Shown: positions 22,326 to 42,745 of the stretch, piece after piece
Position numbering within the stretch: position 1 is the stretch's first letter
How the letters are laid out: each line of letters starts with the position of its first letter
IMG/VR virus record: IMGVR_UViG_3300028454_000679
Length of the DNA: 48,908 nt
DNA from: a virus
Lineage: Duplodnaviria; Heunggongvirae; Uroviricota; Caudoviricetes
Reading direction: 5' to 3' (one strand)
Made by a program: the position numbers and the translations under genes
The notes under the pieces: model-generated
What the model saw: the letters and a program-made list of their open reading frames with translations, nothing else
What the model was told of the DNA's origin: nothing
Databases searched by the model: none

Positions 22326-24436
22326 ATCTCACCTGTCTGTAGCTTCAACTCTTCCGCAACAAACTTAGGATTGGAATAACCATACGTTTCTTCGTCAATC
22401 TTCTCTTCAACAAGAATATCAGTAACTAAGGATATTCCAGCTAAGTAGTCAGGTACATTGTAAGCATCGTAAAACTCATTCTCACAGATGGCATGCAGAG
22501 TTGGTGCTATCTCGCTGTAATAGTTCTTACATACTAAGTTAGCTGCCTTTGTTATAGCCTCGATATTCAGATACTGCTTTACACGTACGGCGTAATCCTC
22601 TCTTGCCTCACCAATTGGGTAAGTGCACTCATGTATAGCTAAAGCTGCATAAAGTGGAACACATGAAGGCTTTACACTATCTGCATATGACGAAACAGTA
22701 AGATAGGATTGACTACTCGGCTTCTGACCCATTTGTATGAAGTGCATGTAGTTACGCTTAATATTCTCAGTACCTGATTTTCTCTTGAGAGATTGTAAAG
22801 CTACCTCAATATCCTTAAAGGCTAGAGCTGCTTTATACTTTTCTGTAGAATACAAGCAGTCAGCGTTCTGTAAAATGGTTGCTCGTTTTGCACAAGTGAT
22901 AACAGCATCAATCATATTACCTGGCAGCCACTTCAAGGCTATATCAGCCTGGAGCATATTAGCTGGTCTAACTACTGCTGCAAATGACCAACTACTCCTA
23001 AGGTCATTAACAAACGTTTCTATAGTCAGTGGTTGAATTGGTGCAGGCTTATGCTGTTTCAACTCATCGACATCCTTACATTTAAAGGCATCCAAGACAC
23101 TCTGTAAGTCATTCGCTACAAGGTCGAATGAGTCTATATGGTCAATAAAGTCTATATCACTCTGAACGCCCATAATGTAGCCTGGCGAAATCTCTGAAGT
23201 GCCAAAGTTACTATCCAGTATACGGCAGATTCCATAAACATTCTGCAAGATAGCGGACACAACATCTACATTGCCGTAATCCTCTATCTGTTGTAATACA
23301 ACATCCAAGTTATCGGAGTAGTTTATTCCTTCATACCGATAGTTCTCGAATGCTTCTTTTAAATCCAAGTGCCTAATTCTCCACTTTGATGCTCCCTGCT
23401 TGCTGGACTCAATTAGGAAGTCTTCAGACGTTTCCTTACTATGGCAAATAACTGGGAAACGTAAACGTGGGTTTGAACTCTCCTGAGCCATCTTCTGCAA
23501 TTTGTTATACATAAGAGGGTATGAGACATGCAACCTGCTACCACAGTTACACTTTATAGCCTGCTGAGTAACACGGATAACATCCTCAAAGTAAACTGCT
23601 ACGAATGGTGAATCCTCTAAAGTTATGGTACTACCACAGTCCGGGCACACACAAGTCAGCTTACCATTCACAACGTTAAACTTGGTAACTGGCTTGCTAT
23701 AAGTGTATGGCTCAAATACGTCACTCAGCTTAGCTGCCCAACCATCTCTGTACCGATTCTCTGATTCATCAAAACGTGAAGAGTCTCTCACAGCATCATG
23801 ATTAACACTCAATAGTTTATCATAAGCGTTTAGTACAATTTTTCTAGCAACAGTTTCATCCTCGAAAGCAACACCATGCTTGACTCTTTCTACTGTACTC
23901 TCCAGAATCTCTTCCCTACTTAACCCTGCACGCTCAAGCTCATCAATAATGCGATATACCGGGTCTGAAGCCTCATCCCTTAGATGTGTATCTTTAGCAT
24001 TTCTGTCATTAGGACTAAGGACAAACAACTTACGCATTATAACCTGTTTATGGTCCTCATTACTCTGATTTAACATATCAACAGTTTGATTACCGTTGCC
24101 CTTCTTCTCATCATAGTCCTCTTGTAAGAGTGCCTTAGTTAATTCATCTGAGATACCATTTGTAATGTACCCATTCACTCTGAGATACTCCTTAGCTTCC
24201 TGCATTAAAGCTTCAGGGGATTCTTCCACCTGCACACTCTGTATCTCATAATCCTCAAAAGCGTCAGGCTCCTCCTCTACTTCCTCGTACTCTTCAAACT
24301 CATTAAAGTCTGAGAACAGGGGTAGATTCTGAACATCCAAAATGGACTGTCCCTCTGGCTGACTTTGTTGTAATGTGTTATCCTCTTGCTGTGAGTTTAA
24401 TTCTATGTTGTCTGTGAAGAAATCAGTTGTTTCCAT
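22319..24436 (-). CDS. Hypothetical protein (705 aa) with acidic N-terminus and Cys4 zinc ribbon
   Basis: SD AGGAGGT; CVCPDCG...KCNCG. Confidence 0.78.
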   Translation of the reverse strand: METTDFFTDNIELNSQQEDNTLQQSQPEGQSILDVQNLPLFSDFNEFEEYEEVEEEPDAFEDYEIQSVQVEESPEALMQEAKEYLRVNGYITNGISDELTKALLQEDYDEKKGNGNQTVDMLNQSNEDHKQVIMRKLFVLSPNDRNAKDTHLRDEASDPVYRIIDELERAGLSREEILESTVERVKHGVAFEDETVARKIVLNAYDKLLSVNHDAVRDSSRFDESENRYRDGWAAKLSDVFEPYTYSKPVTKFNVVNGKLTCVCPDCGSTITLEDSPFVAVYFEDVIRVTQQAIKCNCGSRLHVSYPLMYNKLQKMAQESSNPRLRFPVICHSKETSEDFLIESSKQGASKWRIRHLDLKEAFENYRYEGINYSDNLDVVLQQIEDYGNVDVVSAILQNVYGICRILDSNFGTSEISPGYIMGVQSDIDFIDHIDSFDLVANDLQSVLDAFKCKDVDELKQHKPAPIQPLTIETFVNDLRSSWSFAAVVRPANMLQADIALKWLPGNMIDAVITCAKRATILQNADCLYSTEKYKAALAFKDIEVALQSLKRKSGTENIKRNYMHFIQMGQKPSSQSYLTVSSYADSVKPSCVPLYAALAIHECTYPIGEAREDYAVRVKQYLNIEAITKAANLVCKNYYSEIAPTLHAICENEFYDAYNVPDYLAGISLVTDILVEEKIDEETYGYSNPKFVAEELKLQTGEIW

Positions 24437-25437
24437 TCTTCTAACCTCCTAAGAACTAATTCATAGAAATCCTCTACCTGCATAAGAACAGGATGCTCTC
24501 CAAATTCTCCTGAAACACTACCTCGTGAAGAGGCAATCCTAAACTTAGAGCTGCTAGACGGAGTTGAGTAAAGTACAAACTCATTGGAGTTAACTGCGGA
24601 GTTCATTTTAAACTCATAGATTTGTATTCCATCAACACAAGCGGTTTCTGTACACATATCAAGAAACTCCGCTTTTGTCATACGCTTTCCACGAAATACA
24701 ACATTACCGGTCATGCACACAGGTATGGTTTGAATACTAACTGCTCTAAAGGAACCTTGCTTAATGATATAAGCAAACAAAATATGTTTCAATGCTGAAC
24801 GTATCTCATACATCTTACTTGGTGCATAAATGCCATGCTGTACACACCAAGTAATTAAATCGGACTTTTCCATATCTGAAATAATCTGCTCGTAATTGGA
24901 GTAGTCCTTAAAGACTTCTGCAGCTGCAGTATCAATACCTGTCAACCCCAACTTTCCAATAAACTCTGAAAAGGTGACGTTAGCATCTAAAATAGTCTGA
25001 CACGCTTCTGCAAAGTCGTAACCATGCAAATTATTCAAAGACATTGGATACTCCTTGAATGGGATTGTAAGCACCTCAAGATACGTACCAAAATGGAATA
25101 GGGGCTCTTCACCCCTAGACTCCCTGTCATTGCTTAAACGATTTAGCTCTGTCCACACTTTCTTACAGATGCCTGGACCAATATTCTTGATATTAAAATT
25201 TCTAAACATCTTAGCTAAGCGGTAAGGTATCTTCTCAGGGCACTCTGGATTGCAGCACATCATCTGTGTTTTTGAAGATTTGATAATAATATCACTTCCA
25301 CATGTGCACTGCTCCTTAAAAGCTTCATACCCAGGTAAGTCCGGAATAATTGCACGCCGCTTTGCCTCTCGCACAGTTATCCAACCTCTAAAAGCCTCGT
25401 CTGCTTTATACTCTTGCTTAAACTCTTCAAACGTCAT
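24403..25437 (-). CDS. ligA: NAD-dependent DNA ligase, C-terminal half (Zn finger, HhH, BRCT)
   Basis: CTCGSD...MMCCNPECPEK (Cys4 Zn finger), NIKNIGPGICKK and LGLTGIDTAAA (HhH), IPVCMTG...MTKAEF...SAVNSNEFVL (BRCT); no adenylation domain. Confidence 0.8.
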   Translation of the reverse strand: MTFEEFKQEYKADEAFRGWITVREAKRRAIIPDLPGYEAFKEQCTCGSDIIIKSSKTQMMCCNPECPEKIPYRLAKMFRNFNIKNIGPGICKKVWTELNRLSNDRESRGEEPLFHFGTYLEVLTIPFKEYPMSLNNLHGYDFAEACQTILDANVTFSEFIGKLGLTGIDTAAAEVFKDYSNYEQIISDMEKSDLITWCVQHGIYAPSKMYEIRSALKHILFAYIIKQGSFRAVSIQTIPVCMTGNVVFRGKRMTKAEFLDMCTETACVDGIQIYEFKMNSAVNSNEFVLYSTPSSSSKFRIASSRGSVSGEFGEHPVLMQVEDFYELVLRRLEEWKQLISSQTT

Positions 25438-41552: not shown

Positions 41553-42745
41553 TACTTATCTCCTTTAAAGATGTTTACAGCACCACTGTTACGTTCAAAC
41601 TTTACTGTGCTGCCTACACAAATACCATTGTCTATCAGAATACTAGGATTAAACACATTTATCCTAGTGGCTGTACAACCATCGTATGTAGTCTTTGGCT
41701 CTATCTCTAAAACCACTGACATAAATACACGCTGTTGTTCAATACAAATGCTTTTTACAACACCATAATCCTCATTGAAGTCCCACCAATCAAACTTCAG
41801 TGCAAGTTGGCGATTAGAATACTGATTCTTCTGAACACCTGCCCAGAGTAAATCATCAACCTCAACAACTACACCATCTGATGGAATTCCTTCGGATTGA
41901 TAATGTATATAGTCAAATACTTCTGTCTTAAGCCATGCTTTAAAATCCTCAAAATTATCTGGGATACTCTCCCACTTAAAGCATCTGTAAGGTGGAACTT
42001 CCAACCCATTCCTCTCCAAAGTAGGAAACATATCTGACAACTTCTGAGCTACACCATCCACAAAGAACACACGCGTCTTCAGATACTGGTAGTCCTCCGG
42101 TGCATGCTGAACCCTTAGAAGACTGATTGCCGCAGATTTACACGTCTTGTAAGAAGTATCATCATACTTCTGCTGTAAAATAGGTAAAGCCTCAGGCACT
42201 ACATAGCTCTCTGAGTATGTAATAAACCGGTCATTTGCTAGGCTCAATGTGTTAGGCAGAATGCGTTTAACTGAGTCTGTAAAGTCTATTGAGTTACCAC
42301 TTCTACCACGACTCAGTGACATGGCAAGTTGACCATTCTTGAAAAGGGTCTTTGTATTATTACCGTCAATCTTTAAAGATGTCACAAAGTCAAGGTGCAG
42401 ATTCCTCAGATTCTCAAAGAATAGATATGCCTCTTCGTATGATACAACAGAGTCAATACTCAATGACTTATCTTCATTCATAGAGTCATAATCGTCATTG
42501 TTAAACACACTTGATTTCTGAACAGATGGCTCTGGACTTATTCCACACTGCAAGAGCAGTTCCGTAGGTTCCGGGTCATCATCGTAAGTGCGATTATAGT
42601 ATTCCGCCATATTAGGATAGTTCGTTTTCATCTCTCTATCCAAAAGATCATAGTCAGCATCGCTGATAATAGGTTTCCCGATACGATACATATACCTAGC
42701 AACAACATACAAATCCTCTAGGCTTAATTCATTAATTCCTGACAT
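41552..42745 (-). CDS. ligA: NAD-dependent DNA ligase, N-terminal half (domain Ia, adenylation, OB)
   Basis: YMYRIGKPIISDADYDLL (Ia), SLKIDG (motif I KxDG), PSDGVVVEVD (IV), LALKF (V), then an OB fold that ends at the stop codon; TAATG-coupled to the RNAP gene. Confidence 0.88.
   Translation of the reverse strand: MSGINELSLEDLYVVARYMYRIGKPIISDADYDLLDREMKTNYPNMAEYYNRTYDDDPEPTELLLQCGISPEPSVQKSSVFNNDDYDSMNEDKSLSIDSVVSYEEAYLFFENLRNLHLDFVTSLKIDGNNTKTLFKNGQLAMSLSRGRSGNSIDFTDSVKRILPNTLSLANDRFITYSESYVVPEALPILQQKYDDTSYKTCKSAAISLLRVQHAPEDYQYLKTRVFFVDGVAQKLSDMFPTLERNGLEVPPYRCFKWESIPDNFEDFKAWLKTEVFDYIHYQSEGIPSDGVVVEVDDLLWAGVQKNQYSNRQLALKFDWWDFNEDYGVVKSICIEQQRVFMSVVLEIEPKTTYDGCTATRINVFNPSILIDNGICVGSTVKFERNSGAVNIFKGDK

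Follow-up and report, generated by a model that had tools for sequence, protein, structure and literature searches.

Results

Organization of the two ligase genes

The DNA analysed here, IMG/VR record IMGVR_UViG_3300028454_000679, is a stretch of 48,908 nucleotides catalogued as virus DNA (Caudoviricetes) and is referred to at its full length as the window. It carries two genes on the same strand, 16.1 kb apart, whose predicted products together comprise the domains of one nicotinamide adenine dinucleotide (NAD)-dependent DNA ligase, LigA. The upstream gene codes for 397 amino acids (aa) with the domain Ia, nucleotidyltransferase (NTase; adenylation) and OB regions and is called subunit A in the following; the downstream gene codes for 344 aa with the Zn finger, helix-hairpin-helix (HhH) and BRCT regions and is called subunit B. 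Their positions and signals are compiled in Table 1.

The subunit A gene and the gene for the element's own beta-beta' RNA polymerase are coupled in translation. The TAA stop codon of the former and the ATG start codon of the latter, which opens a frame of 2459 codons, share one base, and a potential ribosome binding site lies just upstream within the last subunit A codons. Subunit B is preceded by a Shine-Dalgarno (SD) sequence of its own; its start overlaps the stop codon of the upstream membrane-protein gene (ATGA), and the gene that follows begins 34 nt before the end of subunit B. A reading of the window made earlier from the sequence alone had described both open reading frames (ORFs), the coupling of the first to the RNA polymerase gene, a separate SD sequence for the second and the absence of intein or intron signatures, and all four observations were confirmed. 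An intein or intron origin of the split was considered and rejected, because start, SD sequence and stop are present for each of the two ORFs, and the ORF lengths equal the sums of their domains, which leaves no space for an intein.

Table 1. Positions of the predicted ligase features and of neighbouring features in the window.
Feature	Coordinates	Strand	Remarks
Ligase subunit A, 397 aa	41552..42745	-	Ia, NTase and OB fold; corresponds to E. coli LigA 19-392
Motif I lysine K125 of subunit A	codon about 42371-42373	-	
SD sequence of subunit A, GGAGGA	42751..42756	-	5 nt 5' of the start codon
Subunit A/RNA polymerase junction	41550..41565	-	AAGGAG within the final subunit A codons, then TAATG
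Ligase subunit B, 344 aa	24403..25437	-	N-terminal extension/linker of ~40 aa, Zn finger, reduced HhH, BRCT; corresponds to E. coli LigA 396-648
Four-cysteine Zn finger of subunit B	25240..25308	-	residues 44-66; C44, C46, C61 and C66 invariant
HhH domain of subunit B	24742..25239	-	residues about 67-232; fourth HhH missing
BRCT domain of subunit B	24442..24741	-	residues about 233-332; family-specific insert including invariant FGEH
SD sequence of subunit B, AGAGGA	25444..25449	-	5' of the start codon
Terminator-like hairpin	34118..34142	-	11 pairs, 7 of them G-C
RNA polymerase ORF, 2459 aa	34173..41552	-	
HNH endonuclease gene	33279..33740	-	
Membrane protein, 267 aa	25434..26237	-	
Class A penicillin-binding protein, 781 aa	44584..46929	-	
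FtsK/SpoIIIE-family ATPase	4584..6677	-	

Subunit A resembles the catalytic half of LigA

Subunit A matched PHROG 3869 ('NAD-dependent DNA ligase') with an E value of 9.8e-24 over profile positions 12-370 of 656, aligned to residues 12-383 of Thermus filiformis LigA and gave a weak match to Pfam PF01653. An alignment of 17 family members was placed on E. coli LigA with an hhalign probability of 96.9%. The protein ends four residues past the last OB strand, in agreement with the sequence-only reading, which had this half stop right after the OB fold. The 120 best relatives measured 394-448 aa, with candidates of up to 695 aa in the search. These comparisons clearly identify subunit A as an NAD-dependent ligase, albeit a diverged one. 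Among 50,697 GenBank phages searched with tblastn, subunit A found matches only at 21-26% identity and subunit B found none; scans of IMG/VR returned no relative of either subunit.

Subunit B belongs to a large divergent family

Neither subunit B nor its four closest relatives matched any Pfam or PHROG family. Searches of the PDB with phmmer and with a five-sequence profile yielded chance matches only (a designed repeat protein and fractalkine), so that a profile of 54 sequences was needed to place the protein. With this profile, 'DNA ligase subunit B' of phage PR1 (9hu3_B) was the best sequence match in the PDB (E 6.5e-10). It also aligned to residues 414-551 of Deinococcus radiodurans LigA (E 2.4e-5) and to the C-terminal part of E. 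coli LigA (94.5% hhalign probability), and an hhalign comparison of subunit B with T5 LigB gave an E value of 5e-5. Structure-based comparison led to the same region of the ligase. The AlphaFold model of subunit B had a mean predicted local distance difference test (pLDDT) score of 82.9, and its top Foldseek matches were E. coli LigA (9a6z_B, E 9e-6) and the PR1 chain 9hu3_B. In VIA alignments, residues 41-233 of the model matched E. coli LigA 405-586 with a Z score of about 8, and many BRCT domains aligned with residues 232-338 at Z scores of 5-6. Given the alignment of its profile to residues 396-648 of E. coli LigA, we assign subunit B as the Zn-finger/HhH/BRCT part of an NAD-dependent ligase, as the sequence-only reading had called it.

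An exhaustive HMMER search collected subunit B relatives in 346 clusters at 50% identity. The best 150 of these clusters spanned 54-494 aa, and none was fused to a catalytic half. Only remote members of the family reach PHROG 3498 or 3869, at E values of about 5e-6. Segments specific to the family are the N-terminal 30 aa, a stretch inserted into BRCT and a helix at the C-terminus. In the close family, the N-terminal addition (residues 1-30) begins with an invariant MTFEE and the BRCT insert contains an invariant FGEH (about residues 310-318). Both motifs are missing from one-chain LigA and from T5 LigB; they could provide extra docking surfaces. Some relatives are longer (411-428 aa) and carry about 50-80 additional aa between HhH and BRCT, on account of which HMMER reports them as two stretches. 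The copy in assembly G003 (G003:C37:179651-180856), an open frame of 420 aa, is of this type.

Catalytic, cofactor and metal-binding residues

Functional residues of E. coli LigA were mapped onto 17 subunit A and 54 subunit B sequences with MAFFT (Table 2). MAFFT placement was unreliable for K314, R277, Y225 and the later HhH glycines; K314 was taken from the hhalign alignment instead, and the other three were not used.

Table 2. Counterparts of E. coli LigA residues in subunits A and B.
Site	E. coli LigA	Window	Conservation in the family
NTase, motif I (KxDG)	K115, D117, G118	K125, D127, G128 (A)	invariant, 17/17
NTase	R136, E173, R208	R146, E179, R211 (A)	invariant, 17/17
NTase	D285, K314	D290, K317 (A; 17/17)	invariant
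NTase	R200	K203 (A)	conservative change
Domain Ia, nicotinamide mononucleotide (NMN) binding	Y22, D32, Y35	Y20, D29, Y32 (A)	invariant, 17/17
Domain Ia	D36	D33 (A)	D or E in 16/17
Domain Ia	H23	R21 (A)	replaced, 17/17
NTase, adenine pocket	E113	S123 (A)	replaced, 17/17
NTase, adenine pocket	K290	E295 (A)	E 15/17, D 1/17, Q 1/17
OB	R333	R339 (A)	invariant
OB	R379	R385 (A)	R or K
Zn finger	C408, C411, C426, C432	C44, C46, C61, C66 (B)	invariant, 54/54
HhH, first-hairpin Gly	G455	G87 (B)	kept, 51/54

The two subunits share with one-chain LigA the residues of motifs I, III, IV (Asp) and V, the NMN-site residues of domain Ia, the OB arginines and the four Zn-binding cysteines. They differ from it at three positions, E113, K290 and H23, which are replaced throughout the family. 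In E. coli LigA, E113 and K290 contact the adenine base, K290 being important though not strictly essential. At the K290 position T5 LigA has an arginine, in contrast to the glutamate found here. As the catalytic and Zn-binding residues are retained, an active enzyme is expected, with an altered nucleotide pocket.

Fit of the two halves

When placed on E. coli LigA, the profiles of subunits A and B abut (19-392 and 396-648) without overlapping, and no part is missing or duplicated. Structure prediction of the two chains together gave a score of 0.73 in three runs, compared with 0.00 for the best of three controls. Of 80 solved complexes, 58 attain this mark, as do 2 of 110 mismatched pairs. 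Contacts agreed to at least 75% between runs, and the pLDDT of the partner was at least 83. The predicted interface is formed by residues 332-378 of subunit A (OB fold) and residues 30-76 of subunit B (pre-Zn linker and Zn finger), joined by subunit B residues 164-167. Since the OB fold and the linker/Zn-finger region are neighbours within one-chain LigA, the score may only echo an intrachain OB/Zn contact that the model learned from solved LigA structures; it indicates likeness and not binding.

A pattern scan detected a strong terminator-like hairpin just past the RNA polymerase gene; the overall count of hairpin-type sites in the same scan was as expected by chance. The hairpin probably ends the transcription unit of subunit A and RNA polymerase, which suggests that subunit B belongs to a different one. 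Subunit B sits in a replication block; the gene of a family A DNA polymerase (PolA) and then that of the membrane protein precede it directly.

Conservation of the split in related elements

Subunit A was present in five Lachnospiraceae or Clostridia assemblies, four of which also contained subunit B. In two of them, G003 (contig of 250 kb) and G005 (310 kb), the halves share one contig and strand, with subunit A upstream and 19-20 kb between the genes. The gene order in both is N-terminal half, RNA polymerase, HNH endonuclease (where present), PolA, membrane protein, C-terminal half, and the proteins are 30-46% identical to those of the window. Moreover, a pattern scan built from a subunit B alignment located 16 loci in human-gut metagenomes, many of them on contigs of 200-270 kb, that retain PolA, the membrane protein and subunit B; no subunit A was found within 10 kb of these loci. 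Altogether, the synteny is shared over at least 18 independent contigs. Among 401 sampled Lachnospiraceae genomes, the subunit A family occurred in two and the subunit B family in one, while 399 had neither.

A misassembly is contradicted by these data, because independent assemblies share the split and the gene order at 30-46% protein identity. By this sequence comparison the split is genuine and conserved in relatives.

Comparison with other NAD-dependent ligases

The principle of a two-subunit NAD-dependent ligase is already known from T5-like phages, a precedent that the sequence-only reading had left unmentioned. In T5, ligA (T5.116, 323 aa) and ligB (T5.117, 259 aa) encode such an enzyme, and the related heterodimeric ligase of phage PR1 has been solved on nicked DNA (PDB 9hu3, 9i5i). 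T5 LigA and LigB cover positions 9-381 and 388-654 of PHROG 3869, respectively, and therefore meet at the same OB/Zn boundary as the halves in the window. T5 LigB and the present subunit B both consist of Zn finger, HhH and BRCT, and both lack the fourth HhH. In contrast to the T5 genes, which are adjacent and separated by about 200 bp holding promoters, the genes described here are 16-20 kb apart with RNA polymerase and PolA between them. Furthermore, subunit B is too divergent for recognition by PHROG 3498 or Pfam and has segments in addition to those of T5 LigB. One-chain enzymes (E. coli 2owo, 4glx and 5tt5; T. filiformis 1v9p) have the same domains in the same order as subunits A and B combined, but in a single polypeptide; the HhH domain of subunit B is reduced in comparison. 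The subunit A family matched Staphylococcus aureus LigA (E 1.3e-11) better than PR1 subunit A (E 4e-4); it is thus nearer to bacterial LigA, a hint that the split may have arisen independently of that in T5.

A probable two-subunit ligase

Taken together, the results make it likely, with a probability of about 0.8 in our estimate, that the element encodes, in two genes separated by 16 kb, the subunits of a heterodimeric NAD+-dependent DNA ligase. That the pair associates physically, seals nicks and uses NAD+ is what we infer from this arrangement. Subunit A would carry the chemistry, with K125 reacting with NAD+ to give the enzyme-adenylate (enzyme-AMP) intermediate. With its pre-Zn linker and Zn finger, subunit B would bind non-covalently to the OB fold; it would also supply the HhH surface for DNA binding, thereby closing a clamp around nicked DNA in the manner of the C-terminal half of one-chain LigA.

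Several observations weigh against this model. One assembly, G002, has subunit A and no detectable subunit B; its subunit A is located close to a contig end (2.8 kb away, on a contig of 21.8 kb). The changes corresponding to E113 to Ser, K290 to Glu and H23 to Arg may alter or weaken cofactor binding, and the possible echo of solved LigA structures in the complex score has been mentioned above. In addition, if the genes are transcribed separately, as it seems, equal dosage of the subunits is not guaranteed.

We regard it as unlikely that the halves work independently of each other, with subunit A as a minimal ligase or adenylyltransferase comparable to NAD-dependent ligases devoid of Zn finger and BRCT, and subunit B as a replisome component of the element that binds DNA or serves as a scaffold. 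The distance between the genes and their probably separate transcription would suit such a division of labour, as would the constant position of subunit B behind PolA and the membrane protein, the additions specific to its family and the genome with subunit A only. However, the domains sum to exactly one LigA, none missing or duplicated, and the halves co-occur. The Zn-binding cysteines and the first HhH glycine, which ligase-type DNA binding requires, have been retained in subunit B, and a confident interface was predicted with the cognate OB fold, with controls at 0.00. Moreover, LigA fragments without the HhH domain adenylate themselves and seal nicks poorly. A host ligase would be available as an alternative partner, since G003 and G005 encode full-length LigA-type frames (666 and 659 aa) on other contigs; subunit B might then modulate or compete with host LigA, or act on host DNA, and not cooperate with subunit A. 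This appears very improbable: subunit B turned up only in genomes that also contain subunit A, host LigA possesses the same domains in cis, and nothing positive speaks for such a role. The sequence-only reading had offered two options, a ligase reassembled in trans or a free C-terminal module used as a DNA clamp or modulator of host LigA. The former is best supported by domain complementarity, synteny, residue conservation and complex prediction, while positive evidence for the latter did not emerge. An assembly artefact, or a pseudogene decaying in two pieces, has a negligible probability as the origin of the split; apart from the unusual arrangement nothing favours either, whereas split and order are identical in independent assemblies with 30-46% protein identity, both ORFs are intact and equipped with SD sites, and the functional residues are invariant.

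A more far-reaching variant of the two-subunit ligase is conceivable but unlikely. Because E113, K290 and H23 are replaced family-wide by Ser, Glu and Arg, the two-piece enzyme might use a cofactor other than ordinary NAD+ or bind NAD+ in a new way, and the placement of one gene in the RNA polymerase unit and the other in the DNA polymerase unit might serve as a control device, making the ligase active only when both programmes are switched on.

Compared with the T5-like systems, the new features are the distance between the genes, their apparent location in separate transcription units, the very divergent and unannotated subunit B family and the altered adenine pocket. The likely two-subunit enzyme thus extends the range of such ligases beyond the adjacent ligA/ligB pair of T5-like phages to one that is stably kept with its genes far apart. 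It also assigns a putative function, that of ligase subunit B homologues, to a large family of 346 clusters missed by Pfam and PHROGs, improves the annotation of widespread giant elements (about 200-310 kb) of gut Clostridia and raises a specific biochemical question with the adenine pocket.

Genomic context

The window, which stems from a contig of 234 kb, is taken to be part of a giant mobile element carried by Clostridia of the gut, whose relatives are found on human-gut contigs of 200-310 kb. The order of the ligase halves, N-terminal before C-terminal on one strand, would fit a cut at the OB/Zn linker by inserted DNA that later grew. An HNH endonuclease gene lies between RNA polymerase and PolA, inside the interval that splits the ligase, and has kept this position in G003 and 13 of the 16 metagenome loci. 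It may be a relic of whatever opened the ligase gene.

The RNA polymerase is encoded by a single ORF that combines beta-type (Rpb2 domains 6 and 7) and beta'-type regions (Rpb1 domains 2-4, with the motif NADFDGD), with short ISNIF-like peptides recurring at its C-terminus. Matches to this protein in G003 and G005 come in two blocks; these copies may be split or carry an insert. The 267-aa protein encoded between PolA and subunit B, a position it always occupies, has a low-complexity N-terminus of acidic and basic residues and one transmembrane helix. Elsewhere, the window encodes an ATPase of the FtsK/SpoIIIE family (E 7e-17) and a class A penicillin-binding protein with transglycosylase (E 6e-57) and transpeptidase (E 9e-28) domains, an unusual cargo for a phage or plasmid.

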